64,000 bases of DNA from IMG/VR virus record IMGVR_UViG_3300045988_114753. One strand, 5' to 3'. How positions within the stretch are numbered: position 1 is the stretch's first letter; each line of letters starts with the position of its first letter. The notes beneath the pieces were generated by a model, which was not told the DNA's origin, did not search any database, and saw only the letters and a list, made by a program, of their open reading frames with translations. Below, one piece after another: positions 6,888-58,086 of this stretch. This stretch comes from a virus. The translations under genes were made by a program, and so were the position numbers.

Positions 6888-9800
6888 ATGAATGAAGAAA
6901 AATCTAATTACGTCGTATATCATCTACATAGTGACTTTAGTCTTTTAGATAGCACAACGAAATTTGAAGATTATGTCATAATGGCTTCTAGTTTAGGACA
7001 AAAGGCAATATGTTTCACTGAGCACGGAAATATTATGCACTGGGTTGCTAAGAAGATGGCGTGTGATAAAGCTGGAATAAAATATCTTCACGGATGTGAG
7101 GTGTATTTAACAGCACAATTGGAGCCAAAGGTTCGTGACAATTATCATACGATTTTGATTGCAAAAAATATGGATGGATTAAGAGAACTAAATCAGCTAG
7201 TTAGTACATCCAATACTAGTAGTCACTTTTACTTTAAACCTAGAATATCATTCGATGAGTTCTTGAATATAAGTGATAATGTGATTAAAATATCGGCTTG
7301 TTTAGCATCGCCATTGGCACGATTAGAAGATGAAATAACTAATTTAACAATGAAAGATGATATTACAGACGAGGAAAAGCAAAGATTAGATTACTTGAAA
7401 AATAGTTTCAATGATGTATTATTGAAATATGATTATTATGAAATTCAACCACACATTAACAGTAAAGAACAAAAAATATACAACAAGAGATTATTTGAGT
7501 GGGCTAAAAAGTATAACAAACCATTAATTGCTGGCACAGATACTCATAGTCTTAATCAATATAAAGCAGAATGTCGTTCAATATTACAACTAGCTAAAGG
7601 TATTGAATTTGCAAATGAAGACCAATTTGATTTGACATATAAGTCTTATGACGAATTGGTACATATGTTTGAAGAACAAGACGCACTGCCAAGAAGTGTT
7701 TATCTACAAGCTATTGAAAATACAAACGTTATGGCAGACTCTTGTGAAGAAATTGTATTAGACAAGGAGTTCAAATATCCTAAAGTCTATGATGATGATA
7801 TTGCAACCATAAAAAGCAGATTGTGGGAGATGCTTAAAGAAAAAGTTGCTAGTGGGGCTATTCCTCAGGAGCAAATGCAATTATTCATAGATAATATCAA
7901 AACTGAACTTGCTGTATTTGAAAAGATTAATATGTGTGGTTTTATGTTATTTATGTCTGACTTAGTTAATTGGTGTCATAGTCACAATATACCAACAGGT
8001 TTCGCACGTGGTTCTTGTGGAGGTTCTTGTGTAGCCTATGTTTTAGGTATTATTGATATTAATCCAATTAAATGGAAAACGGTGTTCTCTCGTTTCGCTA
8101 ATGAAGATAGAAAAGAAATAGGCGATATTGATGTTGACTTTGCACCTAATGACCGTGAGATGGTATATAATCATATGATTGAAGAGTTTGGTGAACAATA
8201 TACAGCCTATATATTAGCAATTGGTACCGTTTCAGATAAAGGTTGTATCGATGAAATCGGTAGAGCCTTACACAGAAAAACAGATAAAGATATGTATTCT
8301 TTAGAAAACTTAAAGAAGATTAAAAAGGAATACGAGTCAAATCCAGAACAAGCAAAAGAAAAATATAGTGAATTATTTTACTATTTTGATGGTTTATTAA
8401 ACACTAATATATCTCAATCTATGCACCCTTGTGGTATGGTTGTTAGTCCAATTACATTAGAAGACAATTATGGCACATTATATAAAGACGACAAAAAGAT
8501 ACTTCAAATTGATATGGAAGATGTACACGAAATATCACTAGTTAAGTATGATATTTTAGGACTAAAAAATGTTGGAATTATAAAGGATGCCTGTGAGTAT
8601 GCTAATATCCCTTATCCAAAATCTAATGAAATAAATTGGGATGACCAAAAAGTTTGGGATGATATGTTGAGATGTCCTCAAGGTATATTTCAATTTGAGG
8701 GAGCATACGCATTTCAAATGCTATGCGAATTTAAACCAAAAAGTATATTTGATATGTCATTAGTAACGGCGGCATTACGACCAGGTGGAGCATCATATCG
8801 TGACTCATTAATGAAAAAAGACATACATCATAATATATCACCAATGATAGATGATATGTTAAAAGACAACTATGGTTATCTGGTGTATCAGGAAGACGTC
8901 TTAAAATTTTTACAACAAATATGTGGTTTGAGTGGAAGTGCCGCAGATAATGTTCGTAGAGCCATCGCTAGAAAGCAAATGGATAGGCTAGAACAAGCGT
9001 TACCATCAATTCAAGACGGATATGTCGAGAAGTCAGGAAAACCTCGTGAAGAGGCTATAAATGAGTTACAGGAGTATATCCAAATATTAATTGACTCTAG
9101 TTCGTATATGTTTGGTTACAATCACTCAATAGCGTATTGTATGGTTGGTTATCTATGTGCGTATTTAAGATATTATCATACTCCATATTTTATAATGGCG
9201 TATCTAAACAATGCACAAAATGAAGATGATATTGTTGGTGGTTTTGAAATGGCAAAATTATATGGTTATCAAATATTGCCACCTCGTTTTAGACACTCAA
9301 CTAATAAATATATGTATGACGAGGAAAATCATCATATTTATAAAGGTGTTGCTAGTATAAAATATTTGAATGATGGTGCGGCAGAATATCTTTATTCATT
9401 GCGTCACAATCATTATGACAACTTTATTAGTTTGTTACAACAAATTGAAGAAGATAGACAAATTAATTCCAGACAAATGGAAATATTGATACAATTACAA
9501 TATTTTGATGAGTTTGGCAAAAATAAAAAGTTGCTTGATACTTATAAATATTTCAAGGCATTGTATGGAAGAAAGACATTAGTAAAAGAAAAGTTGACAG
9601 ACCAAGGATTAACAACAGAAGATATTATAGATTGCTATGAAAAAGAAACAGAAAAGCAGTATGTTAATATAGACTATATGAAGATATTGGCTAATGTCGA
9701 GAAAAGAATACCTGATGAAATAGTGCCTATTACAGAACAAGTATTATTTGAGGCTGACGTTGTGGGATATATTAGTATGGTTTATGATGTTGACAAACGT

Positions 9801-10073: not shown

Positions 10074-11276
10074 ATGAAAAATAAATTAAAATTAAAGATA
10101 TTAAGATTTATTAATTCTAACCATAATTGGAGGGCTATTTTATCAGCCCCTCCATACAATTTAATGTTTAGAGATTTTGATGGTTATACTTTAATTAAAT
10201 ATAATCAATTATTCTCTGACTTTAAAGAACCGATGGTTAGAGAGGCAAGAGGATTTATAGTAAAAAAAGAAGGGCATAAATATGTACCTGTATGTGTCCC
10301 ATTTACTAAGTTCTTTTGTGTTGGAGACCCTAATGCACAGGATGCTTTATATAAGTTAGCACATCGCGATGAATGGTATGTGGAAGAAAAAATAGATGGC
10401 AGTTTAATTAAGTTGTGGTGGGATAATGACGAATGGCACATTTCTACTAGTGGCACAACAGATGCCGAAAAAGCAGCCGTTCAATTTGAAATGAATGATA
10501 TTGCTAATTACAAACAATTATTTATGTATGCGTCTAAAGATAAAATTGATTACGACAGATTAGATAAAAGATACACTTATATGTTTGAACTTATTGGATT
10601 AGAGAATAAGGTAATTGTTCCATATGAGAAAGAAGACGTTTATTATTTAGGACGTCGTGATAATTATACTTTATTAGAAATGCCATATTTTGATGACGAT
10701 TGTGCTGGTGTAGAGAAATGTAAACGCCCTAAATGTAAAATTGTAAAAGTAAATAAGAACCCTAAAAAAGTAATGAAAGAATTGCAAAAAGAGGTAAATA
10801 GTTTTACTAAAGAGCACGAACATTTTGAGGGATATGTAATTTCAGATAAGAGTTTGAAAACTAGAGTTAAAATGAAGTCAACTCAGTATATGGAATTGTT
10901 CTTTCAGAAGGGTAATGGTATTTTCTCCCCACGCAAAATATTATTAATGATATTAGACCAAAAAGACGATGATGTCTTATCATCATTTCCAGAGTATAGA
11001 CCTCAATTTGATGAAGTAAGAAGGGCTTTTTGTGTTTGGCTTGAAGCAGTTAAGAGCGATTTAAGATATATGGATGCTCGTAATTGGGATGACAGAAAGA
11101 AGTTTGCCGAATGGGCTAAAGGTACGACGTGTCCATCAATCGTTTTTAGTGCTTTCAATAATGAAGAAAGATTAGATGGGGATTGGTTAGAGAAACAAGT
11201 GAGAAGAATACAAATCTCAAACTTGGCTATTCAGATTGGAATTGAAGAAAGAAAGGAAGACAAAACAGATGTTTAA
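10074..11276 (+). CDS. ATP-dependent RNA ligase (KxDG nucleotidyltransferase, T4 Rnl1-like)
   Basis: Motif I VEEKIDGSL; upstream EARGFIV; size ~400 aa. Confidence 0.6.
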   Translation: MKNKLKLKILRFINSNHNWRAILSAPPYNLMFRDFDGYTLIKYNQLFSDFKEPMVREARGFIVKKEGHKYVPVCVPFTKFFCVGDPNAQDALYKLAHRDEWYVEEKIDGSLIKLWWDNDEWHISTSGTTDAEKAAVQFEMNDIANYKQLFMYASKDKIDYDRLDKRYTYMFELIGLENKVIVPYEKEDVYYLGRRDNYTLLEMPYFDDDCAGVEKCKRPKCKIVKVNKNPKKVMKELQKEVNSFTKEHEHFEGYVISDKSLKTRVKMKSTQYMELFFQKGNGIFSPRKILLMILDQKDDDVLSSFPEYRPQFDEVRRAFCVWLEAVKSDLRYMDARNWDDRKKFAEWAKGTTCPSIVFSAFNNEERLDGDWLEKQVRRIQISNLAIQIGIEERKEDKTDV

Positions 11277-14756: not shown

Positions 14757-14776
14757 TAAGTAAGGAGGAATTGACT

Positions 14777-15595
14777 ATGAAGAAAAAAATATTTGCAGTA
14801 TCGGATATTCACGGCGAATATGAAATATTAATTAAAGGATTAAAAGAGGCTGGTTTTGATGAAGACAATCCAGAGCATTTATTGGTTAGTGTCGGAGATG
14901 CTTTTGACCGTGGAGGAAATGCTTTGGCAGTATATGAATATTTAAAAAGATTATCTGATAAAGGAAGTGCAGTTGTACTAAAAGGTAATCATACTGGTTT
15001 CTTTACAGGATATTTAGATGGTACAATCTTATCGCCATTTAACTATTATAATAACGGGACAAACGAAACTATGGCTGACTTTTTACACGAAACAGCCCCA
15101 TTTGAGATGTATTGTGTATTAAGAGAAATAGACCAGCCAACCTATGGCGATTTTGCAGACTGGGTTAGTAGAGCTAGACAAGAAATAAATGGAGAGTTCC
15201 CAGAGTTATTAGAGTGGCTAAATACAAGACCATATTATTTAGAAACAGAGAACTATATATTTACTCACGGGGCAATAGATACAAATGCAAAAGATTGGCA
15301 TAAGCCACATTGTGAAAGATACCATTTTACAGATTGGGACGCCTTAATGTGGGATGATGGAAGTTTTTTTGAAAAAGAGATAAATAATACACATAAGACT
15401 GTCGTAATTGGTCATTTTGGGACAGCTACTTTAAGAAAAATGTATGGCTATTCACCAAATAGAAACCTAAAAGGAAGTTTTGACATATTAAAAAGAAAGG
15501 ATGGACGAGTTATTGCAATAGACGCAACAACCAATCTCTCTAAAAAAATTAATGTGTTAGTATTAGAAGATGAAGAAGTTATAGATAACATATAA
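14777..15595 (+). CDS. calcineurin-like metallophosphoesterase
   Basis: VSDIHGEY, GDAFDRGG and GNHT motifs. ATG 14777 lies 7 nt after AAGGAGGAA. Confidence 0.8.
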   Translation: MKKKIFAVSDIHGEYEILIKGLKEAGFDEDNPEHLLVSVGDAFDRGGNALAVYEYLKRLSDKGSAVVLKGNHTGFFTGYLDGTILSPFNYYNNGTNETMADFLHETAPFEMYCVLREIDQPTYGDFADWVSRARQEINGEFPELLEWLNTRPYYLETENYIFTHGAIDTNAKDWHKPHCERYHFTDWDALMWDDGSFFEKEINNTHKTVVIGHFGTATLRKMYGYSPNRNLKGSFDILKRKDGRVIAIDATTNLSKKINVLVLEDEEVIDNI

Positions 15596-20646: not shown

Positions 20647-20722
20647 TGGTACAGGGAATAGGACTTGAACCTATAACCCCACCCTTATAAGGAGTGTGCT
20701 CTAACCATTGAGCTATCCCTGC
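20647..20722 (-). tRNA. tRNA-Ile (anticodon TAT)
   Basis: GCAGGGA-TA-GCTC..GAGC-A-CACTC CTTATAA GGGTG-GGGTT-ATAGG TTCAAGT CCTAT-TCCCTGT-A-CCA. Confidence 0.8.
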
Positions 20723-20725
20723 ATA

Positions 20726-20785
20726 TGGAGCCGATGGGCAAGAATTTCACTTGCTTAGTTACCTAGGACTATTATACTCATCGAC
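20726..20785 (-). ncRNA. 60-nt tRNA-like mini-element with acceptor stem and encoded CCA
   Basis: GTCGATG...GCAAG TGAAATT CTTGC..CATCGGC-T-CCA. No D arm; non-canonical T loop. Confidence 0.3.
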
Positions 20786-20789
20786 ATAT

Positions 20790-20866
20790 TGGAGCACCTA
20801 ATAAGATTTGAACTTATGTTCAGGGAGTTGCAGTCCCTTGCCTTAACCAAACTTGGCTATAGGTGC
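20790..20866 (-). tRNA. tRNA-Cys (GCA)
   Basis: GCACCTA..AGGGA CTGCAAC TCCCT..ATAAG TTCAAAT CTTAT-TAGGTGC-T-CCA. Confidence 0.8.
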
Positions 20867-20868
20867 AT

Positions 20869-20926
20869 TGGTGGATATTTTTTCGTATTAGATGCAGTAC
20901 TACACCAAATATTTATAGAAATATCC
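20869..20926 (-). ncRNA. 58-nt acceptor-stem/CCA mini-element
   Basis: GGATATT...(10-bp internal hairpin)...AATATCC-A-CCA. No T or D arms. Confidence 0.25.
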
Positions 20927-20933
20927 AAAACTA

Positions 20934-21062
20934 GCTCATACCCGAGTCGAACGGTAACACTCGTCAGTGTGACCCACATCTCTGAGCATATATGGTGGAC
21001 ATAGATAGAGTCAAACTATCCTCCTCAATTTTGTTCCTTAATTGAGTATCTCGGAGTCCGCC
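20934..21062 (-). ncRNA. two further degenerate tRNA-like elements (about 54 and 69 nt, no CCA)
   Basis: First: GCTCAGA..ACACT GACG AGTGT..TTCGACT..TATGAGC. Second: GGCGGAC..CTCAATT AAGGAACAA AATTGAG..GATAG TTTGACT CTATC..GTCCACC. Confidence 0.2.
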
Positions 21063-21067
21063 CAAAT

Positions 21068-21144
21068 TGGTTGCGGAGACGGGATTTGAACCCGTGACAC
21101 CTAGGTTATGAGCCTAGTGAGCTACCAGACTGCTCTACTCCGCG
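21068..21144 (-). tRNA. tRNA-Met (CAT), initiator-like C1-A72 mismatch
   Basis: CGCGGAG..CTAGG CTCATAA CCTAG..ACGGG TTCAAAT CCCGT-CTCCGCA-A-CCA. Confidence 0.8.
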
Positions 21145-21465
21145 ATAATATTGGACATAAAATATGTCCAAACCCTAATTTTAACGAAGGGATGAGGTTG
21201 GAGGGTGATAACTAACCCACTGTAGTGCTGCTAGTTTAAGTATTTAAACAGGTACTAGCGACCGACTATAACCTCTCAAATTCGTCTTCCTACTCGAGTA
21301 GAAATAGAGAAAACTAGGTCGCCGACATAAATGTCGTCGACTACTCTTTACATCAGCAACCACGCAAAAGATAATTCTTTTTTCCCTGAAACCAACTGAA
21401 AACCTACCTCACTCAGTCGGACTTTGCCTAACCCATAATAAACTATTAGACGTTCCAAAACGGCT

Positions 21466-21903
21466 CTAAGAAGCCCTTTTTAATTCCTCATAGTCACAAA
21501 TAATTTGTTGAGGATATTTAACACTAATTCCTAATGACGACATAGATGACAATATGTCTTTTTTATCATCCACTAATAATACTTGAGTATTCATTATTCC
21601 ATTTATTTTTAGGAACCATTCAACATAATCACTCTTACGTTCTCCAGGATGTAAGAAAAATGATTGAGAAGTGTTAGGAAAGTATTTATTCAACCATTCT
21701 ATCTTCTCTTTTATTCCAAAGGCTCCTCCTTGTACTTGAGATATTATAATGAATTTGGCTTTAGGATATAAAGTGTTTAGTGCATCAATAACGATTTGGA
21801 TTGGACGTTTATTAATATACATCCCATCACAAAATTCTATGTCTTTACAAGTGATGTTCTCTGCTATTGTATTATCCATATCAACAAACACATAACTAAT
21901 CAT
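21466..21903 (-). CDS. HAD-family phosphatase (5'(3')-deoxyribonucleotidase-like)
   Basis: Motif I FVDMDNT; AGGAGG RBS. Confidence 0.55.
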   Translation of the reverse strand: MISYVFVDMDNTIAENITCKDIEFCDGMYINKRPIQIVIDALNTLYPKAKFIIISQVQGGAFGIKEKIEWLNKYFPNTSQSFFLHPGERKSDYVEWFLKINGIMNTQVLLVDDKKDILSSMSSLGISVKYPQQIICDYEELKRAS

Positions 21904-22384
21904 TATTGTCGCCTCCTAACAATCTTAATGCCTTTTGATAATCATATATAGTAAACCCTAATTGACAATCGCATCTAACCAACACAGGCAATAAATGGCA
22001 CATATCAGAGTCATCATCAATGATTATAAATTTGTTTTTAAAATTGTTGTCATCAATCCATTTTTGTATTTCTAGTCCTCGTGCTTGATATAATATTGGC
22101 GTCATACCTATTACTTTAATACTAGGATTAAACCCAGATTTAGTAATGATGTCTTGTAATTGCGTTAACGTCATACCAATACGCCAAGAACTAGAAACGA
22201 CTATATCATAAGGTATTTTATTATATAATTCATTAAGCCACCCAATTGCTTGTTTATTATTAAGAGATGCACGACCAATTTTATGTATATTGAAAGACCA
22301 AGAACCATCTTTATCTTTCTCCCAATATATAGTTTCTACAACTCCATCAAAATCTAAAAAGACAACGGGTTTTGAATTACTCAT
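21896..22384 (-). CDS. HAD-like phosphatase (resembles the HAD domain of RNA-repair proteins)
   Basis: VVFLDFDGVV motif I. ATG 22384 after GGAGGT. The track N-terminal extension overlaps tRNA-Gln. Confidence 0.5.
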   Translation of the reverse strand: MSNSKPVVFLDFDGVVETIYWEKDKDGSWSFNIHKIGRASLNNKQAIGWLNELYNKIPYDIVVSSSWRIGMTLTQLQDIITKSGFNPSIKVIGMTPILYQARGLEIQKWIDDNNFKNKFIIIDDDSDMCHLLPVLVRCDCQLGFTIYDYQKALRLLGGDNND

Positions 22385-22404
22385 AATATACCTCCATATT
22401 CTTT

Positions 22405-22481
22405 TGGCTGCCTCGGGAAGCCTCGAACTTCCAAATTCAGGTGTCAAAGACCTGTGGCTTTACCAGTTTGCCTACGAGGCA
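22405..22481 (-). tRNA. tRNA-Gln (TTG)
   Basis: TGCCTCG..CAGGT CTTTGAC ACCTG..GGAAG TTCGAGG CTTCC-CGAGGCA-G-CCA. Confidence 0.8.
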
Positions 22482-22618
22482 ATAAATATTTTCCCAAGGC
22501 TTCTAAAGTTTCTTGGGATAGGACTTATACATAAGGCTTTAAGGGCTTGTACTTGACCCAAAGTTTCTTATGACGCCATAAGTGTAAAGGGGTAAAAAAT
22601 GAAATGAAAACATTTTTC

Positions 22619-22695
22619 TGGTGCACCATCTAAGAGTCGAACTTAGTACCTCTCGCGTATCAGACGAACGCTCTAACCAAATGAGCTAATGGTGC
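22619..22695 (-). tRNA. tRNA-Ile (GAT)
   Basis: GCACCAT-TA-GCTC..GAGC..TTCGT CTGATAC GCGAG..CTAAG TTCGACT CTTAG-ATGGTGC-A-CCA. Confidence 0.8.
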
Positions 22696-22707
22696 AAGGG
22701 AGGGGAA

Positions 22708-24765
22708 TTAATTCCCACTTAATAAATGTATAAGACTGTCTTTTGCTATATTACTTAATGATAAATCAATGTCGGCATCCATTGTTTGAATACTGTCTTG
22801 TGAAGTACCATCGGGCATTACAGTTCTTTGTATAATACTATATTGTGGCTGGTCTATAACTATTGCACCAGCATCTTTTAATAAGTCATTTAATTTTAAT
22901 TGTAGCATATTGTATGTGCGTAGATAATCAAATGAGCCCATTGTAATACTGTTTCTAGTAGATGTACTGCATCCTCTAGGGGTTCTAACATCACCACCAG
23001 CACTAAAGTCGTTGAAGTAGAATTTTACAGTATCTCCTATGGTAATTAAACCAAGAACCTTTTGTCTTTCTGTATTCTTTATTTCCATATCAATCTTTTC
23101 GATTATATCGTTAGGATTAATTGCATAATTTTTACGAATAGCAGATGAATTTGCAGGAGCTTTTGCTAAAACAAACTCAAATGGTACGTCTTTAGTATTA
23201 CTAGTAAACATATTCAATGTAATTAAGAACGCACCGTGACCATAATTACGTCCTACATAGAACAATTCAGTAGCTCCAGTTGGTGCTGGGGCATCTGTAA
23301 TATCGCCACTAAACAAAATATCTGATGCAGAACTTCTATAAGAAGCATCCCAACCAAATACTTCATTTTTGTTCATTTGTTTTAAATCAAGGTCTACTCT
23401 TTCTTCTCCATTAGGTTTTATTTCACCATAGAAACCTCGAGATTGATATTTACCATCGCCTGGTAAATTTGTCCAATGAACACCATATACCAAATCATCA
23501 ATTCTAGGAACTTCAATATACGAACCAGCAGGAATATTACCATTAAATTGTTTTTCACTTGTAGGGGCTGCGTATGTAATATTGTTTGGTATGTATATAT
23601 ATTTACCTTTTACATTTGTTGAAATTCTATCAACCAAGTGAGTCTTAATAATTTGACTAATATCTTCTAATTTTTTGATATATGCTTGTGTTTTTGGTGG
23701 CAGACTTGTAACGTATGACTTACCATTTCTAATCTTATATACTACATTATTATTACCATATAATCTATACAATACCCCGTTTAATATTCTAATCTCTCTA
23801 AAGATAGTAATATTATCAAGAGCACTACATAACTCATTAACGTTAATATTAACATTAGTATCAGTCAAGCAATCTAAAATATTTCTTTTTAGTGGCTTGT
23901 GATTATTATTAGCCATCTTTCTTAATTTATTGATAAGTGCATTAATACTTTTACGAGTAACTTCATCTTTTTCAGTTCTACACTCATCTTGTTTTATCTT
24001 TAATGCAAGAAATAGATTTTTATTTCTTAAGAATATTGAAGATAACTTTTCATAGCCATTTGGAGTTTTGATAACATATAGTTGTAACATATTTAATGCT
24101 TTAGCTTTATCACTTTTCTTTATGGCTCTAATAGTATCTACATTTTGTATTTTTAAAGTACCGTTTGTAAGTTTAAATAATAAAAATCTCAAGAACTCTT
24201 CTGGGTTACGTGGCATAATGTTATATTTATCATATAAGGTAGTTTTTATTTCTCTATTGACAATTTCGTCAAATCTATTTTTGTCAATAAAATCTGATAA
24301 AACCATAACATCTTTGACCGTTTGTTCAGACAATGCAATACCGCTAGTTAAAAGCCCCATTAATTTTTCAGTTAGTTGTTCTGATGTATAAGGTTTAATT
24401 GTAATTAGTTCAATATTATCAACATCTAACTCTGGGATTTCTAACTTTTCTTTAGGAATATACACTAAATCCTCACGATAAATACCTAAACTCTCAAAAC
24501 CATAAGTTGTAATATAGTGCATAATTTGTTGAGCAATTAAATCTTCAATAGGTGCGTTACGAACTATTTCAAAATCTTTATGGAATGTTTGGTTCCATTT
24601 TTGACCGTCTTTACCATATAATTCGATAGCCTCTTTAACAACTGCTTCACTAGCACTACTTGGGATTAATAAACCATATTTTAATCCTTCTTCTGAAACA
24701 CTATTAGATTTTTCTCCTAAAAAACCTTTGAATAATCTTAATACCTCTTTTTCCATTTCTTTCAT
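22708..24765 (-). CDS. large orphan protein (helical N-terminal half, beta-rich C-terminal half)
   Basis: 685-aa ORF immediately downstream of the four structured RNA units. The C-terminal segment VDLDL...FSGDITDAPAPTGATE loosely recalls TerD-type folds. The start could instead be 24756. Confidence 0.75.
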   Translation of the reverse strand: MKEMEKEVLRLFKGFLGEKSNSVSEEGLKYGLLIPSSASEAVVKEAIELYGKDGQKWNQTFHKDFEIVRNAPIEDLIAQQIMHYITTYGFESLGIYREDLVYIPKEKLEIPELDVDNIELITIKPYTSEQLTEKLMGLLTSGIALSEQTVKDVMVLSDFIDKNRFDEIVNREIKTTLYDKYNIMPRNPEEFLRFLLFKLTNGTLKIQNVDTIRAIKKSDKAKALNMLQLYVIKTPNGYEKLSSIFLRNKNLFLALKIKQDECRTEKDEVTRKSINALINKLRKMANNNHKPLKRNILDCLTDTNVNINVNELCSALDNITIFREIRILNGVLYRLYGNNNVVYKIRNGKSYVTSLPPKTQAYIKKLEDISQIIKTHLVDRISTNVKGKYIYIPNNITYAAPTSEKQFNGNIPAGSYIEVPRIDDLVYGVHWTNLPGDGKYQSRGFYGEIKPNGEERVDLDLKQMNKNEVFGWDASYRSSASDILFSGDITDAPAPTGATELFYVGRNYGHGAFLITLNMFTSNTKDVPFEFVLAKAPANSSAIRKNYAINPNDIIEKIDMEIKNTERQKVLGLITIGDTVKFYFNDFSAGGDVRTPRGCSTSTRNSITMGSFDYLRTYNMLQLKLNDLLKDAGAIVIDQPQYSIIQRTVMPDGTSQDSIQTMDADIDLSLSNIAKDSLIHLLSGN

Positions 24766-24784
24766 TCTCCTTTTTTACTTAATA

Positions 24785-24912
24785 CGTCGGAAGGTAATAT
24801 TATGACTGGTGCCTTCAACCACTTGGCTACTCCTCATAAAATGAAGAGGGTGGATTTGAACCACCGTATACCAGTGTCCTCTTTTTTAGTATGAAAGGAA
24901 CCCTCTATGACG
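24785..24912 (-). ncRNA. Structured RNA unit 1: bulged closing helix plus circularly permuted tRNA-like domain
   Basis: 5' CGUC-AUA-GAGGGU pairs with ACCUUC-C-GACG 3'. Inside: ACUGG-UAUAC-GGUGG UUCAAAU CCACC-CUCUUCA-UUUUA-UGAGGAG-UA-GCC AAGUGGUUGAA GGC-A-CCAGU. Confidence 0.6.
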
Positions 24913-24930
24913 TAATTATATTATATTAAA

Positions 24931-25052
24931 AGGCGAAGAGTAACTAATTCGTTGCTCTACCCAGTTGAGCTAATCGCCAGTGATGGCGATATGGGACTCG
25001 AACCCATAACCTACGGCTTACAATGCATTATAAACAGGAACTCTTTATGCCT
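24931..25052 (-). ncRNA. Structured RNA unit 2: bulged closing helix plus permuted tRNA-like domain
   Basis: AGGC-AUA-AAGAGU pairs with ACUCUU-C-GCCU. Inside: AUGGG UUCGAGU CCCAU-AUCGCCA-UCAC-UGGCGAU-UA-GCUC AACUGGGUA GAGC. Confidence 0.6.
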
Positions 25053-25068
25053 AATAATCAAATTGAAT

Positions 25069-25143
25069 AGACGAGAACTAATAATCGTTGGAATTGAACC
25101 AACCAAACCATTCTTTGTTAATAAAAAGGAAGTTCTTATGTCT
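25069..25143 (-). ncRNA. Structured RNA unit 3: same closing helix, apical T-arm-like hairpin only
   Basis: AGAC-AUA-AGAACU pairs with AGUUCU-C-GUCU. Inside: GUUGG UUCAAUU CCAAC. Confidence 0.5.
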
Positions 25144-25160
25144 ATTAAATACAATATTTG

Positions 25161-25222
25161 AGACGAAGAGTAAATCTAAACCATTTACCTAATCAATTGT
25201 AATAAAGGAACTCTTTATGTCT
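25161..25222 (-). ncRNA. Structured RNA unit 4: same closing helix, short apical region
   Basis: AGAC-AUA-AAGAGU pairs with ACUCUU-C-GUCU, with a 38-nt insert. Confidence 0.45.
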
Positions 25223-25242
25223 CATATCATACTGTCAACTAT

Positions 25243-25271
25243 ATAATATCATAATATTACTTAGTTGTCAA
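25243..25271 (-). promoter_or_regulatory. sigma-A-like promoter driving units 4 to 1 and the 685-aa ORF
   Basis: Minus strand TTGACA (25271-25266), 17 nt, TGaTATTAT (-10 at 25248-25243). Confidence 0.5.
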
Positions 25272-25288
25272 GCATTATTTACAAATTT

Positions 25289-25380
25289 TGGCGTTAGGTG
25301 TAGGATTTGAACCCACGGTACGCTTCCACGTACGCTTGATTTCAAGTCAAGTGCTTTAAACCGAACTCAGCCAACCTAAC
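25289..25380 (-). tRNA. tRNA-Ser (TGA), long variable arm
   Basis: GTTAGGT..CTTGA CTTGAAA TCAAG-CGTACGTGGAAGCGTACC-GTGGG TTCAAAT CCTAC-ACCTAAC-G-CCA. Confidence 0.8.
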
Positions 25381-25771
25381 ATTTATTTCTAAAGTTTCTA
25401 GCAGATTTTTTATTCTTTGATTTATATGTTGGTAATTGACTGTCACAATTTGGACATATCAATCTTAAGTTATCCCTATTATTATTAGAAGCATCTCCAT
25501 CTATATGGTCAAGAATAAAGTTTATAGGCTTATTATTCCAAACTTTTGACATCCCACAAATTGCACACCTGTGTAATTGTGAGTCCAAAATGTATGTCCT
25601 GATTATCCCTCTTACAGTACTAGAAATATGATAAGGCCATTTACCGTAAAGTAACCAATTTAATAATGTAGATTTATGTTTACTAAATTGTAAACAATTG
25701 AGACACATATTACTTTTGTTTGGATATATATCAATACCACACATAATACATTTAAGATTTTTTTTACTCAT
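25376..25771 (-). CDS. HNH endonuclease (freestanding, in tRNA island)
   Basis: DHIDGDASNNNRDNLRLICPNCDS plus N-terminal CxxC pairs. Confidence 0.75.
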   Translation of the reverse strand: MSKKNLKCIMCGIDIYPNKSNMCLNCLQFSKHKSTLLNWLLYGKWPYHISSTVRGIIRTYILDSQLHRCAICGMSKVWNNKPINFILDHIDGDASNNNRDNLRLICPNCDSQLPTYKSKNKKSARNFRNKC

Positions 25772-25790
25772 AATAATCTCCCAATCAAAA

Positions 25791-25948
25791 TGGTCGGAGA
25801 AATTGGATTTTCACCAATAAGGTGGTTATTCCCACGTTTCCTCTCTTGTGTGTAACTATATTATATAATCCAATAACACAAGACGAGTTGTCGTATTACC
25901 CACACCCTGCCTCCAGGGTCACGCTAGATATTACGTGAATATTCTCCG
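25791..25948 (-). ncRNA. 158-nt structured RNA with tRNA-type acceptor stem, T-arm-like hairpin and encoded CCA
   Basis: CGGAGAA...(helices TCACG/CGTGA, ACCCTG/CAGGGT, CTTGTGT/ACACAAG)...ATTGG TGAAAAT CCAAT-TTCTCCG-A-CCA. Confidence 0.3.
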
Positions 25949-25951
25949 AAA

Positions 25952-26028
25952 TGGTGCGGGTTTACGGACTCGAACCGCAGACCCTCTGCTTGTAAGGCAG
26001 ATGCTCTAACCAACTGAGCTAAACCCGC
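25952..26028 (-). tRNA. tRNA-Val (TAC)
   Basis: GCGGGTT..TCTGC CTTACAA GCAGA..TGCGG TTCGAGT CCGTA-AACCCGC-A-CCA. Confidence 0.8.
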
Positions 26029-26033
26029 AATTA

Positions 26034-26109
26034 TGGAGTGGGAAACGGGACTCGAACCCGCAACAGTCTGCTTGGAAGGCAGAGACTCTACCAATTGAGC
26101 TATTCCCAC
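26034..26109 (-). tRNA. tRNA-Gly (TCC)
   Basis: GTGGGAA..TCTGC CTTCCAA GCAGA..GCGGG TTCGAGT CCCGT-TTCCCAC-T-CCA. Confidence 0.8.
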
Positions 26110-26344
26110 ATAAGTGATAGATGCCCACAAAGTGGGCGATGCTTAACTCCTTCTACTTTGTGTTTTACCCATTGGGTCGCCGAAGCTAGGCTGGGACTAT
26201 CAACTCCCGTCAAAAATAAATAGGCACTCTTTTATGTATTTTTATCTCAATTTCCTTTACTTGTCTGCGACCATCATACACATTTGACCAGACAATTCCT
26301 ATTTATATGAGCCCTTCTTTAGTATGAATTAAATACGAGGGGTG

Positions 26345-26494
26345 TTAAAACTTATTTTTAATCTTTTCAATTATTTCTTTTAACTTATCTGTGAGGTTGA
26401 TTTCTTTTTTATTTTTAGTATCCCTCACAACTACATCTTCGTCCAGAACTATGAATAACAATAATAAAATAATAATAATTAATATTGCTCCCAT
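26345..26494 (-). CDS. 49-aa small membrane protein
   Basis: AGGAGG, 8 nt, ATG. Translates to MGAILIIIILLLLFIVLDEDVV...; below the track length cut-off. Confidence 0.5.
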   Translation of the reverse strand: MGAILIIIILLLLFIVLDEDVVVRDTKNKKEINLTDKLKEIIEKIKNKF

Positions 26495-26518
26495 TGTTTC
26501 AACCTCCTACTTTTTCAA

Positions 26519-26594
26519 TGGCGTCTTAGGAAGGACTCGAACCTCCGACCTATTGGTTAACAGCCAACCGCTCTACCAACTGAGCTACTAAGAC
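26519..26594 (-). tRNA. tRNA-Asn (GTT)
   Basis: GTCTTAG..GTTGG CTGTTAA CCAAT..GGAGG TTCGAGT CCTTC-CTAAGAC-G-CCA. Confidence 0.8.
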
Positions 26595-26598
26595 AAAA

Positions 26599-26676
26599 TG
26601 GTGACCTCTGCGGGATTTGAACCCACGATACCACCGTGAAAGGGTGGTGGCTTAAACCAGACTTGCCGAAGAGGCC
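26599..26676 (-). tRNA. tRNA-Glu (TTC)
   Basis: GGCCTCT..CCACC CTTTCAC GGTGG..GTGGG TTCAAAT CCCGC-AGAGGTC-A-CCA. Confidence 0.75.
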
Positions 26677-26679
26677 AAA

Positions 26680-26931
26680 TTATTCTATGATTATAGAGTT
26701 ATTTTCCAAGTATTTTATCATTGATTTTAATACTTCTTGATAAAACTCTTTTCCCATACATTCTGTAGTGACTTGAAAACTTCTTGTTTCACCTTCACAA
26801 CCATTTTCATATGGGTCTTCCAAATTAGAATAAATATCTAATTCTCCAAAACCAGGTGTGCCGTGCCATAAACATTTAATATGCCCTTCTCTAATAACAA
26901 CACCATCAACCTCGATTTTTCTATCTTTCAT
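26680..26931 (-). CDS. hypothetical protein
   Basis: ATG 26931 (MKDRKIEV) after GGAGAA. The track N-terminal extension overlaps tRNA-Ser. Confidence 0.55.
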   Translation of the reverse strand: MKDRKIEVDGVVIREGHIKCLWHGTPGFGELDIYSNLEDPYENGCEGETRSFQVTTECMGKEFYQEVLKSMIKYLENNSIIIE

Positions 26932-26950
26932 ACTTATTCTCCTTTTAAAA

Positions 26951-27042
26951 TGGCGTCCACTAGAGGGCTCGAACCTCTGCGTCAACTTAATCGACCTAAG
27001 AGTTTAGCAAACTCTCCTCTTCACCAACTTGAGTAAGTGGAC
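26951..27042 (-). tRNA. tRNA-Ser (GCT), long variable arm
   Basis: GTCCACT..AGAGT TTGCTAA ACTCT-TAGGTCGATTAAGTTGACGC-AGAGG TTCGAGC CCTCT-AGTGGAC-G-CCA. Confidence 0.8.
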
Positions 27043-27049
27043 ATTAAAT

Positions 27050-27136
27050 TGGTGCTCCTGAATGGATTTGAACCATCACGGGATTACTCCCAACGGATTT
27101 TAAGTCCGTTGCGTCTGCCTATTCCGCCACAAGAGC
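27050..27136 (-). tRNA. tRNA-Leu (TAA), long variable arm
   Basis: GCTCTTG..ACGGA CTTAAAA TCCGT-TGGGAGTAATCCCGT-GATGG TTCAAAT CCATT-CAGGAGC-A-CCA. Confidence 0.8.
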
Positions 27137-27143
27137 ATTAAAA

Positions 27144-27218
27144 TGGTGCCGACACCTCGATTTGAACGGGGAACCTATCGCTTACAAGGCGATTGCACTA
27201 CCGTTGTGCTATGTCGGC
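27144..27218 (-). tRNA. tRNA-Thr (TGT)
   Basis: GCCGACA..ATCGC CTTGTAA GCGAT..CCCCG TTCAAAT CGAGG-TGTCGGC-A-CCA. Confidence 0.8.
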
Positions 27219-27366
27219 ATAAAATAGGATAAACTGTATAGATGAAGGTACGTACAACATCACTATCGGCTTTTAATTTTTACTCGTATCAATATTACAA
27301 GATTAGTCGGCACTTGGGGCAAAACTGATTGCCACCCTTGATACGAAACCTATATAAATTACTAAA

Positions 27367-27442
27367 TGGTGGTCAGACCTGGGATTGAACCAGGGACACT
27401 AGCATTTTCAGTGCTATGCTCTACCAACTGAGCTATCTAACC
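27367..27442 (-). tRNA. tRNA-Phe (GAA)
   Basis: GGTTAGA..TAGCA CTGAAAA TGCTA..CCTGG TTCAATC CCAGG-TCTGACC-A-CCA. Confidence 0.8.
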
Positions 27443-27458
27443 AAGAAAGAAGAATTAA

Positions 27459-27791
27459 TTATTCTACGATGTCATAGATACTTTGTTTTAGTTCTTCTAT
27501 TGATTTTGTTAAATCATTATAAATATCTTGATGAATTTTAGCATATTCTTCGCCTTTTTTGATTTCTGCACGAACTTCATTACGAATTGCTACTAACATT
27601 GCACGTCTAGCTCTTCTATAACTGATTTTCGCACCAATTTCAACATCAAAAGTATCTTCTGGAGAACATTTTGCCACTCCAACGAATTTTAATGCTGGAT
27701 TTTCATTAGTCCCTAATAATAATGTAGTGACTGTTCTTCTTTTTTCATCAACGATTACTTTCTTTTCTGTCTTTGGTAATCTGATTTTCAT
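27459..27791 (-). CDS. hypothetical protein
   Basis: AAAGGAGGA RBS; track ORF between tRNAs. Confidence 0.65.
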   Translation of the reverse strand: MKIRLPKTEKKVIVDEKRRTVTTLLLGTNENPALKFVGVAKCSPEDTFDVEIGAKISYRRARRAMLVAIRNEVRAEIKKGEEYAKIHQDIYNDLTKSIEELKQSIYDIVE

Positions 27792-27819
27792 AATTAATCC
27801 TCCTTTTTTACAAAATTAA

Positions 27820-27897
27820 TGGTCGGGAATGCAGGATTTGAACCTACGACCTCTAGTTCCCAAAACTAGCGTTCTAGCCAAGCTGAACTAATTCCCG
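27820..27897 (-). tRNA. tRNA-Pro (TGG)
   Basis: CGGGAAT..CTAGT TTTGGGA ACTAG..GTAGG TTCAAAT CCTGC-ATTCCCG-A-CCA. Confidence 0.8.
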
Positions 27898-27900
27898 AAA

Positions 27901-27978
27901 TGGTGGAGAATGTGGGGCTCGAACCCACAACCTACTGCGTGCAAGGCAGTCGCTCTAGCCAATTAGAGCTAATTCCCC
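27901..27978 (-). tRNA. tRNA-Ala (TGC)
   Basis: GGGGAAT..ACTGC CTTGCAC GCAGT..GTGGG TTCGAGC CCCAC-ATTCTCC-A-CCA. Confidence 0.8.
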
Positions 27979-27983
27979 AATAC

Positions 27984-28060
27984 TGGCGGTTCGTACGAGA
28001 TTTGAACTCGTGATTTCCTGCGTGACAGGCAGGCGTCATAGACTACTAGACCAACGAACC
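27984..28060 (-). tRNA. tRNA-Asp (GTC)
   Basis: GGTTCGT..CCTGC CTGTCAC GCAGG..ACGAG TTCAAAT CTCGT-ACGAACC-G-CCA. Confidence 0.8.
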
Positions 28061-28070
28061 ATAACATATT

Positions 28071-28565
28071 TCAGTCAGCATATTCCCAATAATAACCATA
28101 CGCTGTTTTCCTTTTACCCTTACAAACATCTGTGATATGAGAGTCGTGTCCTCTAACAGCTTTTGCAGCTTCTGATAAAGAATTATATTTTGCAATGATA
28201 TTACCACGCATATCTTTTTGAATACATTTTCTCTTATGATTATTTTCAAAATTCATTGCTCCAATTTTAATTGCGTGTTGTGTATTATATTGATAGGTAC
28301 ACCATTCTAAATTCCAATAATTATTATTTTTTGAATTATTATCTATATGATTAACTATTGGATAATTATTTGGGTTGGGCACAAAATACAAAGCAACAAG
28401 TCGATGTGGGAATACTGTTTTCAATGTGTGATTAACAGAAATAGTTGTTCTCAAATATCCTCTACGGTTAGGTGTCAACTTTAAAACACGCCCTGTAATA
28501 TCATTTCTAATTCTTCCATAATTACTGATAGAATATTTATTAACAAAATTTCTCCATTCTTCCAC
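28071..28565 (-). CDS. HNH homing endonuclease (NUMOD4-like N-terminus, HNH_3 core)
   Basis: EEWRNF..YSISNYGRIRN; HRLVALYFVPNP...VNHIDNNSKNNNYWNLEW. GTG 28565 after AAGAGGTG is preferred, because the track start overlaps tRNA-Trp. Confidence 0.75.
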   Translation of the reverse strand: MEEWRNFVNKYSISNYGRIRNDITGRVLKLTPNRRGYLRTTISVNHTLKTVFPHRLVALYFVPNPNNYPIVNHIDNNSKNNNYWNLEWCTYQYNTQHAIKIGAMNFENNHKRKCIQKDMRGNIIAKYNSLSEAAKAVRGHDSHITDVCKGKRKTAYGYYWEYAD

Positions 28566-28590
28566 CGTCACACCTCTTTTACAATAATAA

Positions 28591-28665
28591 TGGCACGGGA
28601 TTGAGGTTATGCTCCCCATACTTCGGTTTTGGAGACCGACGTCTTTCTGATTAGACTAATCCCGT
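28591..28665 (-). tRNA. tRNA-Trp (CCA) with atypical T loop
   Basis: ACGGGAT-TA-GTCT AATCAGAA AGAC-G-TCGGT CTCCAAA ACCGA-AGTAT-TGGGG AGCATAA CCTCA-ATCCCGT-G-CCA. Confidence 0.6.
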
Positions 28666-29837: not shown

Positions 29838-30303
29838 ACTTCTCCTCCAATTCTTTGAATGTTAATGGTGTGTCATTAATAATTATTACTAAACTTTCTC
29901 CACCATCGCCGAACCAGTGTTGATAATATAGATTATTTTGAAGTGCATTTATATACTCATTTCCGTCTTTATCCATCCAAGGGACACTAATGTAATCATT
30001 AGAACCATCTTCATATATTATGTCTAAATGTGTTATGTCTTTATTTTCAATTCTATCTTCTAATAAAGTTTTATCATCCCAGCCTCCAATAGTCGTTAAC
30101 CCTTTACGATTGATAGACAGTAACATTTCTTTGCAAGATACACTTTCGTACACTTCACCATCTTCATATTGAAATACGTTAACTCCAATATTTCTTGTTA
30201 CATCATTAACTACGCACATATCTATCATTTTTGGTGTTAAGCTATATACTTCACAATTTTCAAAAACTATATCTATTGTTTTTATCTTTTTATTCTTCAT
30301 CAT
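29824..30303 (-). CDS. hypothetical protein
   Basis: Track ORF, tiled on the - strand. Confidence 0.6.
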   Translation of the reverse strand: MMKNKKIKTIDIVFENCEVYSLTPKMIDMCVVNDVTRNIGVNVFQYEDGEVYESVSCKEMLLSINRKGLTTIGGWDDKTLLEDRIENKDITHLDIIYEDGSNDYISVPWMDKDGNEYINALQNNLYYQHWFGDGGESLVIIINDTPLTFKELEEKYGIR

Positions 30304-31273
30304 TTTCCCTCCATTCTTTTAACTGACAAGCATTCTCATTTCTACCCCATATATCTGCATCGTGCAATAACTCTAACATATGATATAGGTCATCATCATT
30401 AAACATTTCTTTAATTGGTGTCATATCTTCTCTACGATACCACTCCATATGATTTAATATTAAGGCTCCAATTTGATATGAACTATCATATAAACGCACT
30501 CTATCCAAATCATCTCTCATATTTTGTTTTCTCACGTGGCACATAAATAAATAAGTAGAGACTTTATCGTGTCCATAATACACAAAACAGTTTTTCTTAT
30601 CATTAAATGTTTTAGTGTATAATTTACCAAAATCGTGATAACGAGCTGCTTGTCTTAAGATTTCAGCATCAATACGTAATTTTAAGTTTTTACCTAAATC
30701 CTCTGCTCTCTTTACGACTGCTTTTATATGTTCTTCTAGTGTTTCACAATGATGTGGGTTATCTTGTTTATAGTCTATACAATCGTCTATTAAGAAATTA
30801 TAATCGTATACATCATTATACATACCGCCGTCTATTAAATATATATTATCAAAACCTTCATAATACATTGGTGGTTCTATACTCTGTATCATTTGAATTA
30901 ATTTGTCCCAAGGTATTTGTCTTTCTTGTCTAGTGATATTTCTTTCTAATATTATATTTATAGGGGTGCAACATAAATAAGCGTTAACTTCAGCATCACA
31001 CATTTTAGCCCTCTTTATTATATCACTCCTACGTTTTTTATTAAGATTTGTAGCATCATATATAACATCAAAGTCATTTTGTAGTGCTGTTAAAGTTTCT
31101 CTTTTCATTCTCTCAAAAACTTCTGCGTTGTGGGTTTGGTCTTCAAAACCAAACATATCAACTCTTATATCGTCGCTAGATAAATATACGGTGTTATCGG
31201 TTAATAATTCAGTTTTTGCATATTTTGTCTTTCCACTCCCTGGTATTCCAATCATTATATTTAATTTTGCCAT
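30290..31273 (-). CDS. P-loop kinase (polynucleotide-kinase-like) fused to HD phosphohydrolase
   Basis: IGIPGSGKTKYAK...LSSDDIR...YDATNL kinase layout. C-terminal HHCETLEEH...RYHDFGK HD motif. ATG 31273 after GAGGGAGG. Confidence 0.65.
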   Translation of the reverse strand: MAKLNIMIGIPGSGKTKYAKTELLTDNTVYLSSDDIRVDMFGFEDQTHNAEVFERMKRETLTALQNDFDVIYDATNLNKKRRSDIIKRAKMCDAEVNAYLCCTPINIILERNITRQERQIPWDKLIQMIQSIEPPMYYEGFDNIYLIDGGMYNDVYDYNFLIDDCIDYKQDNPHHCETLEEHIKAVVKRAEDLGKNLKLRIDAEILRQAARYHDFGKLYTKTFNDKKNCFVYYGHDKVSTYLFMCHVRKQNMRDDLDRVRLYDSSYQIGALILNHMEWYRREDMTPIKEMFNDDDLYHMLELLHDADIWGRNENACQLKEWRENDEE

Positions 31274-31340
31274 TATATAGCCTCCCTCTATCATATCTAT
31301 TAAAATTATAACAAAAAAAACGCATTAAGTCAATATGTTT

Positions 31341-39826: not shown

Positions 39827-40017
39827 TATTTTCCCTCCTTAATCAATACAATTTTATAGAAAGTTCCGTCAAAACTAACTTTAACCTCTTTATTTATTAT
39901 TTGCTTTACTGCATCAACTTGCTCTTGAAAGAACACATAAGTATTTCCTTTATCTTTCAATTCTTCAACTGCGTCCTTTACAATACCCCTAAAATAAGCA
40001 TTTTCTTCCTCTAACAT
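39826..40017 (-). CDS. hypothetical protein
   Basis: Track ORF. Confidence 0.6.
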   Translation of the reverse strand: MLEEENAYFRGIVKDAVEELKDKGNTYVFFQEQVDAVKQIINKEVKVSFDGTFYKIVLIKEGK

Positions 40018-43200: not shown

Positions 43201-43416
43201 CTAAATACTATCGTCAACACTTATTATTTCTAATATTTGCCACTCGTTTTCCATTATATCTTTGTTTTTAATACATTCTTCTATATCGTCTTTTGAAAGT
43301 CCATAGAAGAAAATACATTCGTCTTCTTTTTCACTATCGCTACAATCAAATGCTTTAATTGTCCCTACGAACTCGGTATCGTCGTCAACCCATTTTAATC
43401 TACAAGTAGTATACAT
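43201..43416 (-). CDS. hypothetical acidic protein
   Basis: Track ORF. Confidence 0.6.
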   Translation of the reverse strand: MYTTCRLKWVDDDTEFVGTIKAFDCSDSEKEDECIFFYGLSKDDIEECIKNKDIMENEWQILEIISVDDSI

Positions 43417-43419
43417 AAG

Positions 43420-43758
43420 TTATTCCTCCTCGTTCAAGATTTCTAGTAGGTCTTCTCCAACTAAATCATATTGAATATTTCTACTTAATATATATTCTCT
43501 AATCTTATCTTCTTTAGATTTCTTGTTGTTAATTTCATTAAATGCTCTTAAAAAGTCGCTCATAAAATCTACAAAATCACTAAACTCACTTTTACTTATA
43601 TCTTGCATAGTATAATCATAATCTTCTCCACTAATATAATTATACCATTTATCAAGGTTGTCATAATGATAATCATATACTCTATTAAAATCTTCGCTTG
43701 TATTATCTCCTAAATTCCAACCATACTCTTGCATTTTTTCAAATATTTTATCTTTCAT
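43420..43758 (-). CDS. hypothetical acidic protein
   Basis: Track ORF. Confidence 0.6.
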   Translation of the reverse strand: MKDKIFEKMQEYGWNLGDNTSEDFNRVYDYHYDNLDKWYNYISGEDYDYTMQDISKSEFSDFVDFMSDFLRAFNEINNKKSKEDKIREYILSRNIQYDLVGEDLLEILNEEE

Positions 43759-57706: not shown

Positions 57707-58078
57707 TTAGTCAAAGTTTCTAGTGCTTATTCTTTCCTTAATTTCCATTAAGTCTTTTATATATTCTTTTTGCTCCCACTCTTTAATAACTTCTGCTTTT
57801 TTATTGGCTAGTAGTCTTGATATGCCGTTATCTTCCTTGTATTCTGTTATGTAAGATTTTTGATTGCTTTCTAAAATATTTGCTAGTAGTTGTCGCATAC
57901 AAGTTTGATAAGTGTAGCACTCCCAAGTTCTATTATAATACCTAACTTTATGGCTTTCTACTTCGCCCCAAGGTGCAATTAATGTGCTTTTATGTCCCCA
58001 AGAGTTGCTAGTTTCCCAATATTCATTTACTATATTATATTCATTTCCACTTTTACATTTAATTTTTTTTATTTCCAT
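57707..58078 (-). CDS. hypothetical protein
   Basis: Track ORF; follows P6. Confidence 0.6.
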   Translation of the reverse strand: MEIKKIKCKSGNEYNIVNEYWETSNSWGHKSTLIAPWGEVESHKVRYYNRTWECYTYQTCMRQLLANILESNQKSYITEYKEDNGISRLLANKKAEVIKEWEQKEYIKDLMEIKERISTRNFD

Positions 58079-58086
58079 AATTTTTT

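Follow-up and report, generated by a model that had tools for sequence, protein, structure and literature searches.

Introduction

What are four structured RNAs, each closed by the same bulged stem, doing directly in front of a large phage gene, and are they Y RNAs? This question is raised by a 64,000-nt stretch of virus DNA (IMG/VR record IMGVR_UViG_3300045988_114753; the whole stretch is called the window in the following), the minus strand of which carries four tandem RNA units upstream of a gene for a 685-aa protein. An earlier note on this DNA had proposed a phage-encoded array of modular Y-RNA-like or tRNA-decoy RNAs on one protein-binding stem, with the 685-aa protein as a possible partner. 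Here we call the shared stem the handle and whatever it encloses the cargo. We found that the handle is a real and widespread RNA motif and that the conserved module is the RNA array together with this one protein, and we consider it probable that the two form a Y-RNA-like ribonucleoprotein (RNP) that is independent of Ro60.

Results and Discussion

The handle as a covarying RNA motif

The handle consists of a 4-bp stem, an A-N-A bulge opposite a single C and a 6-bp stem ending with a U-A pair, followed by UCCU, and its 5' strand has the consensus NGRC-AUA-RNNNSU-UCCU. We compiled 79 IMG/VR loci encoding relatives of the protein (32-100% identity), three phage loci and two metagenome contigs and scanned for the pattern N4-N3-N5U-UCC...A-N5-C-N4, with perfect pairing required. 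From 707 kb of sequence (85 sources) this yielded 228 units on the gene strand versus 8 on the opposite strand. At least one unit was present in 79 of the 85 sources, and most of the others were either without upstream DNA or had units with one mismatch. The bulge reads AUA in 139, AAA in 51, ACA in 28 and AGA in 3 units. Arrays contain 1-7 units of 42-160 nt, separated by spacers with a median of 18 nt. Among 147 distinct handles compensatory changes were observed in nine of the ten pairs, with 412 double-change cells compared to 107 +/- 15 after shuffling. The pair U13-A27, the UCCU, the bulged C and A5 and A7 are invariant or nearly so, and not all of these had been imposed by the search pattern. 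Within the 147 handles no exception was seen for the U-A pair, the UCCU and the bulged C.

As the scanned units had been selected for pairing, a covariance model (R1) was tested on a held-out set, namely 37 of 40 GTDB genome loci that had been found via the protein (profile A1 was used for this genome scan, profile A2 from the diverse alignment being too divergent). R1 gave 45 matches at E <= 1e-3, all of them on the gene strand. In the held-out handles 98.7% of the cells were paired and nine of the ten pairs covaried, with a covariation score of 0.715 versus 0.24 for shuffled alignments. R1 was built from handle mini-constructs and misses long units because their insert exceeds the model window; scripts were used there, and the script scan of all 40 GTDB loci found 63 units on the gene strand versus 2 on the opposite one. 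The earlier note had described stem base pairs that covary around constant bulges, which holds across very divergent phages, and a covariance model, a kind of check it had suggested, finds the handle in the held-out loci with the covariation retained. Of the 3' flank AUUAKUU, which had been taken as fixed, only (A/U)U ahead of the invariant A is conserved.

In the window itself, of which both strands were scanned, the perfect-pairing script found only the four UCCU-bearing units of the array. The pattern CATARNNNNTTCCT occurs 8 times compared to 0.37 expected occurrences, and thus the recurrence of the handle pattern exceeds chance. Four surplus CATA...TTCCT matches (Table 1) lack a 3' partner and are explained by ribosome-binding sites on the opposite strand: read in reverse complement, the 5' half of the handle (CAUA-N5-UUCCU) gives a typical GGAGGAA-spacer-AUG initiation region. 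A search of the window against Rfam 15 with gathering as well as lenient thresholds returned only tRNAs and a partial YrlA match, with the handle in no family, and no near-identical DNA was found in GenBank phages. In the literature we found neither the RNA nor the protein described, an unnamed entry in the catalogue of 10,006 candidate viral RNAs (PMC10690425) being possible.

Linkage of the array to one protein gene

The protein encoded downstream of the array belongs to a large family, with 1906 relatives among metagenome proteins and 1424 clusters at 50% identity; its homologues begin at the ATG at 24756, which gives 682 aa. The link between array and protein persists at about 30% protein identity, as seen in the Synechococcus cyanophages S-CRM01 and S-CBWM1 and in the gut phage Phass-1. 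Clustering of the same-strand open reading frames of 84 loci revealed the protein as the only common gene, the next cluster being present in 7 of the 84, and a second conserved neighbour gene was sought among these loci and not found. For the reverse test IMG/VR was searched with the RNA pattern alone, which returned 116 stretches with 80 loci listed. The protein is encoded in 50 of these 80 listed loci, nearly always immediately downstream and on the same strand. In most of the loci without it the unit lies at the edge of the stretch or the other stretch of the same contig encodes the protein, with handle and protein on separate stretches of one contig in L108/L143, L145/L152 and L116/L151. 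The linkage of the RNAs to this protein family is near-obligate, and the conserved module is the RNA array plus this one protein. The 685-aa protein, as sole shared gene with a linkage down to about 30% identity, is accordingly supported as the candidate partner, judged from gene neighbourhood.

A handle unit directly ahead of the protein gene was also seen on very large cellular contigs, namely two contigs of cyanobacterial metagenome-assembled genomes (L221, 946 kb; L240, 663 kb) and a 10.5-Mb Limisphaerales chromosome (L227); these occurrences may be prophages or cellular copies. As a further observation, genes for transfer-messenger RNA (tmRNA) are located directly beside handle arrays in L007 (2008-2374), L003 (Phass-1, 7515-7953) and L008 (1-57).

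The last unit of an array mostly ends 17-40 nt ahead of the gene, and in the window a GGAG ribosome-binding site follows 6-15 nt past unit 1 with no terminator between unit 1 and the gene. Such an arrangement is also what would be expected from a cis-regulatory leader, whose units lie in the 5' untranslated region and are bound by the protein or another factor in order to autoregulate translation or mRNA stability without having a role as free RNAs. Ribosomal-protein leaders and the T4 RegA and gp32 operators are precedents for leaders of this kind. However, an operator would hardly need 1-7 units whose cargo is elaborate, differs between units and can even be a whole tRNA. Moreover, units are also found downstream of the gene (L040, L053, L076, L001), inside tRNA arrays kilobases away from it (L002 1474-1526, L048 1398-1461) and in stretches without the protein gene (L100, L085), and this dispersal argues for an action in trans. 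We regard a purely cis-acting leader as unlikely, and as an added feedback it is compatible with an RNP.

Layout of the window

The four tandem minus-strand units described in the earlier note, with their 4-bp stem, AUA/C bulges and 6-bp stem, match the sequence exactly (Table 1), the spacers between them being 17, 16 and 18 nt long. The promoter it had placed upstream of the array is present and near-consensus. It is the best-scoring promoter site between 22400 and 25800 and would drive the array and the downstream gene.

Table 1: Features of the window discussed in the text; units are numbered as in the earlier note.
Feature	Position	Strand	Details
Promoter TTGACA-17-TATTAT	25271-25243	-	sigma-70-type; 11/12 match, TG upstream of the -10 element
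Unit 4 (first transcribed)	25222-25161	-	62 nt; handle AGAC-AUA-AAGAGU/ACUCUU-C-GUCU; cargo: short AU-rich apical part; R1 39.8 bits, E = 1.8e-11
Unit 3	25143-25069	-	75 nt; handle AGAC-AUA-AGAACU/AGUUCU-C-GUCU; cargo: T-arm-like hairpin GUUGG-UUCAAUU-CCAAC, AAUGGUUUGG just before it; R1 37.7 bits, E = 1e-10
Unit 2	25052-24931	-	122 nt; handle AGGC-AUA-AAGAGU/ACUCUU-C-GCCU; cargo: permuted tRNA mimic with T arm, capped acceptor helix, D arm
Unit 1	24912-24785	-	128 nt; handle CGUC-AUA-GAGGGU/ACCUUC-C-GACG; cargo: permuted tRNA mimic with class-II-like D arm and native 5-bp anticodon-stem equivalent CCAGU/ACUGG
Gene of candidate partner protein	22708-24765	-	685 aa from first ATG
18-tRNA array	20647-28665	-	interrupted by HNH/NUMOD homing-endonuclease genes (25376-25771, 28071-28619)
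PNK-like protein	21466-21903	-	
HAD_SAK_2 protein	21896-22447	-	
AAA_33 kinase+HD protein	30290-31294	-	
Rnl1 RNA ligase	10074-11276	+	
Antisense ribosome-binding site	14766-14779	-	not a unit
Antisense ribosome-binding site	39936-39949	+	not a unit
Antisense ribosome-binding site	43414-43427	+	not a unit
Antisense ribosome-binding site	58076-58089	+	not a unit

The phage window further encodes a DnaB-primase, a Pol III alpha subunit, NrdD/G, a dUTPase and an integrase, and close relatives are found on contigs of about 110 kb. A context rich in tRNAs and RNA-repair genes had been pointed out before; this is true of the window, but it is not conserved in the related loci, from which the HAD_SAK_2 and kinase genes are absent and many of which have no tRNA genes nearby. 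The PNK gene of the window is no conserved partner either.

Cargo and tRNA mimicry

Minimum-free-energy folding reproduced the two-part closing helix in all four units of the window. Units 1 and 2 are more stable than their shuffled versions (z = -3.2 and -2.6) and fold into T arm, capped acceptor-like helix and D arm, which bears out both the closing helix and, for these two units, the tRNA-like fold. In both of them the acceptor helix is closed by a loop of 3-4 nt and the handle replaces the anticodon loop. ARAGORN made no tRNA call on the natural, permuted units 1 and 2. After re-joining in normal tRNA order both units were called as tRNAs, so that the description of both as circularly permuted tRNA mimics stands; the construct of unit 1 kept its own CCAGU/ACUGG stem and needed no additions except a 7-nt artificial loop and a terminal ACCA. 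The order of modules known from YrlA-type RNAs (T arm, acceptor-like hairpin, D arm) is present in units 1 and 2 and absent from units 3 and 4. The core of unit 2 (25015-24947) matches the Rfam YrlA model at model positions 23-88 with 47 bits (E = 2.8e-9), which is below the gathering score of 69, and no match to this model was obtained for unit 1. Sub-threshold YrlA matches of 35-51 bits were found inside the arrays of all eight loci that were scanned against Rfam, and the S-CRM01 locus shows such a match as well.

As another possibility, units 1 and 2 could be permuted tRNA genes that are rearranged into functional tRNAs, or they could be punctuation marking processing sites for RNase P/Z in the tRNA-rich transcript. 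That T arm, D arm and acceptor helix suffice for ARAGORN once un-permuted is in line with this, as are the position of the array within the 18-tRNA region and the cleavage of M. smegmatis YrlA by RNase P (PMC4201824). Most units of the family are, however, devoid of tRNA features, and a tRNA-gene neighbourhood is missing from many loci. With a capped acceptor and the handle in place of the anticodon loop no aminoacylatable tRNA could arise without splicing and ligation, and we know of no pathway in bacteria by which such permuted tRNAs would be matured. Because a loop caps the acceptor end, true permuted tRNA genes, an alternative named in the earlier note, are unlikely; we consider this whole explanation very improbable and functional permuted tRNAs as effectively excluded.

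The cargo is modular across the family. From 198 unique units 149 are without a T- or D-arm motif, and 118 of these 149 are not longer than 70 nt and mostly small AU-rich hairpins. A T-arm hairpin alone, as in unit 3, is found in 17 of the 198 (units of this class also occur in L005, L006, L008, L010 and L012), 28 are permuted tRNA mimics with T arm before D arm as in units 1 and 2, and 4 are tRNAs in the normal order of D before T. Complete normal-order tRNAs with encoded CCA are enclosed by handles in L013 (1877-1997), L014 (2074-2217), L020 (1768-1883) and L062 (2638-2755). To the enclosed tRNAs that it called, ARAGORN assigned anticodons of the Ile or Met type (GAU, AAU, CAU, and CUAU within an 8-nt loop), and these are the sole tRNAs within 8 kb. 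The handle joins the permuted mimics at their anticodon side and the normal-order tRNAs at their acceptor end. As the geometry between handle and cargo is not conserved, the handle behaves as a generic holder.

Two further observations concern the cargo. In L123 (7609-7723), L134 (6359-6469, minus strand), L101 (4428-4542, minus strand) and L100 (3606-3719) the tRNA-like cargo has an acceptor stem and CCA, and in L123 and L134 a GAAA-capped stem replaces the anticodon loop, making them anticodon-less tRNA mimics. Furthermore, AUGGUU or CAUUGG is found repeatedly in short cargos and immediately 5' of T-arm hairpins (unit 3 as well as u61, u63, u91, u93, u97, u101 and u102), and these motifs may mimic the GG of the D loop, which docks on the T loop to form the tRNA elbow.

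The candidate partner protein

No match for the window protein was found in Pfam or PHROG, and Pfam gave nothing consistent for 61 diverse members of the family. PDB sequences were searched with the protein, its halves and profiles of 32 or 61 homologues, again with no match, for the family profile even at E <= 10. A first AlphaFold2 (AF2) model based on a shallow alignment was uninformative (pLDDT 74.7), and a second one based on a diverse alignment reached a pLDDT of 91.7 and a pTM of 0.90. The latter predicts a helical N-terminal half (residues ~1-385), which is basic with an isoelectric point of 8.95, a beta-rich domain (~386-600) and a small alpha/beta C-terminal domain. In a Foldseek search of this model against the PDB the best match had E = 0.02 and no Ro60 chain was returned. 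In BFVD the only strong matches were to full-length phage proteins of this kind, the best of which is annotated as 'tellurium resistant like protein'. Residues ~420-505 can be aligned motif by motif with the Ca-binding region of K. pneumoniae TerD, with an hhalign probability of only 3%; Pfam TerD gave no match and no TerD chain was among the 50 PDB fold matches listed. A TerD-like domain at ~420-505 is thus suggestive only. The protein also has invariant acidic residues (D457, D459, D487 and E499) within the motif RVDLDLS..GWD..YR..LFSGDxTDAPxPxGASE.

Such an acidic cluster would suit a processing cassette, in which the handle is a maturation signal and the protein a metal-dependent RNA endonuclease or ligase; by cutting at the bulges it would set the cargo free and perhaps circularise it. 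CRISPR repeats cut by Cas6 and the processing stalks of rRNA are comparable signals. The tandem, stem-enclosed cargos with short spacers agree with such a function, and some of the cargos are complete tRNAs with encoded CCA that require excision. Nevertheless, a nuclease or ligase fold or motif was not detected in the protein, and the majority of the cargos are very small AU-rich hairpins for which no purpose after release is apparent; for the embedded tRNAs RNase P and 3' processing would suffice. Taken together we find a processing cassette improbable.

Proposed mechanism

Covarying helices, invariant bulged and single-stranded bases and, in every lineage, one adjoining protein are together a signature of RNA-protein recognition, and we therefore rate an RNP as the most likely explanation. 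It would probably be a Ro60-independent, Y-RNA-like phage particle, with the protein binding the handle and the units being released and acting in trans with their cargo. The conserved helix and the variable cargo also support the initial idea of a modular Y-RNA-like or tRNA-decoy array on one shared stem. According to this model one transcript, starting at the promoter of the array, would comprise the units and the adjacent gene of the ~680-aa protein. This protein would recognise the handle by its bulges and the UCCU, and of the helices only pairing would be required. The AU-rich spacers would be the sites where the units are then released from this polycistronic RNA, and the resulting particles might act in trans like Ro60/Y RNA particles with the handle as tether for the protein. 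Cargo of the tRNA-like type could engage factors that recognise tRNAs, for instance enzymes for processing, repair or modification or host nucleases that target tRNAs. By also binding the unit next to the ribosome-binding site the protein may in addition exert feedback on its own translation. What the analysis shows is the structure of the RNAs with its conservation and covariation, the modular cargo and the near-obligate linkage to the protein family; that the protein binds directly, that single RNAs are released and what they do in the phage is inferred.

Several results weigh against an RNP of this kind. About 75% of the unique units are without tRNA-like cargo, and tRNA mimicry can therefore not be the universal function. 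Units 3 and 4 alone are thermodynamically ordinary (z = -1.4 and -0.45), and the protein has no RNA-binding domain that is recognisable in its sequence or its predicted structure. In about 11 of the loci retrieved with the RNA pattern the sequence continues for more than 2.6 kb downstream, with no protein gene in the stored stretch. The short distance from the array to the start codon on the gene strand would suit a purely cis-acting leader just as well, and the units with genuine tRNAs needing excision fit a processing role for the handle.

A wider version of the proposal is that the system is an undescribed and widespread phage RNP, with a novel-fold protein of ~650 aa and a handle displaying interchangeable cargo, which as a Ro60-independent counterpart of Y RNPs would manipulate or protect the tRNA pool. 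Possible ways of doing so are to act as decoys for defence nucleases that target tRNAs or to recruit repair or processing enzymes. We put this version forward tentatively, as quite possible if somewhat short of probable, and see a substantial chance that the system is a separate new class of RNP. With this knowledge a large and unannotated family of phage proteins gains a testable partner and context, and an RNA motif with hundreds of examples and clean covariation can be added to those in Rfam 15. As tRNA-cleaving defences and phage tRNA arrays are actively studied, the array might also be a tractable system for the role of tRNA mimicry in infection, and the modular handle could serve as a natural scaffold for RNA display.

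Comparison with known systems

With tmRNA and SmpB the system shares a tRNA-like RNA that has a dedicated protein, and tmRNA is a permuted two-piece RNA in some lineages. In contrast to tmRNA, the handle units have neither an mRNA-like tag nor pseudoknots and their capped acceptor cannot be charged, and the candidate partner is unrelated to SmpB in size and fold. Tandem structured repeats with covarying stems, few fixed bases and a dedicated protein beside them are also known from CRISPR and Cas6. There, however, the repeat forms a local hairpin, whereas the two halves of the handle flank the insert and pair across it; moreover, the inserts are structured RNAs instead of spacers and Cas-like domains are absent. 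GOLLD and ROOL are likewise non-coding RNAs with no assigned function and often occur in the tRNA regions of phages, but they are large protein-independent assemblies of 500-800 nt that are represented in Rfam, while the handle units are modular and tied to one protein family. Among structural motifs, a kink-turn, in which tandem sheared G.A pairs with GA on both strands follow a 3-nt bulge, was rejected, as Watson-Crick covarying pairs follow the A-N-A bulge and the opposite strand has a single C and not GA, and the archaeal bulge-helix-bulge motif was ruled out from the sequence.

The closest resemblance is to the Ro60/Y RNA system. To our knowledge a protein-binding terminal stem is combined with a tRNA-like effector module in no other well-known class of small RNAs than the Y RNAs, which are defined by Ro60. 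As in YrlA and Ro60 systems, the two ends of the RNA form a bulged stem beside conserved single-stranded bases, several RNAs with differing apical parts are present per locus directly upstream of the gene of the presumed partner, and RNA-repair genes are located nearby, the latter in this window. As in YrlA (RF02553), the apical tRNA mimic is ordered T arm, capped acceptor helix and D arm. Phage phiLo Ro60 likewise has two Y-RNA-like genes (Yrl1/2) directly upstream of its own gene (PMC12135203). Together with the sub-threshold YrlA matches this would be compatible with divergent YrlA RNAs and a highly divergent Ro60 (TROVE) orthologue.

Other results speak against such a genuine Ro60/YrlA system. 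YrlA Y RNAs carry the Rsr-binding motif GNCGAAN0-1G on the 5' strand of their terminal stem (Chen et al. 2014, PMC4201824), and this motif is absent from the 5' strands of the handles, which have A-N-A/C bulges and UCCU instead. The stem of the YrlA model (positions 1-22 and 89-114) does not align in the window. Ro60 proteins consist of TROVE, a HEAT-repeat ring, and a vWA domain; by Pfam neither TROVE nor vWA was found in the window protein or in 61 diverse homologues, and its C-terminal half is beta-rich and not a vWA domain. No relative of the fold was detected; the Ro60 entries 9nen, 1yvp and 2nvo were confirmed to be present in the PDB sequence copy. The hhalign probability against human Ro60 was 0.2%, and tblastn with human Ro60 against the window and 1.95 Mb of loci gave nothing. 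Most handle-family units have no tRNA-like part at all, and some cargos are whole tRNAs joined via their acceptor end, which also differs from YrlA. Of the four defining features of YrlA the RNAs thus lack three: a score reaching the Rfam threshold, the GNCGAA(N)G motif and Ro60 as partner. A genuine Ro60/YrlA system is largely refuted and with such a remote probability effectively excluded. The handle RNAs fall outside the YrlA family, and they resemble the Ro60/Y RNA system without being part of it: the design principle of Y RNAs, including a permuted tRNA core of the YrlA type, is found here on a different handle that is tied to another protein family.

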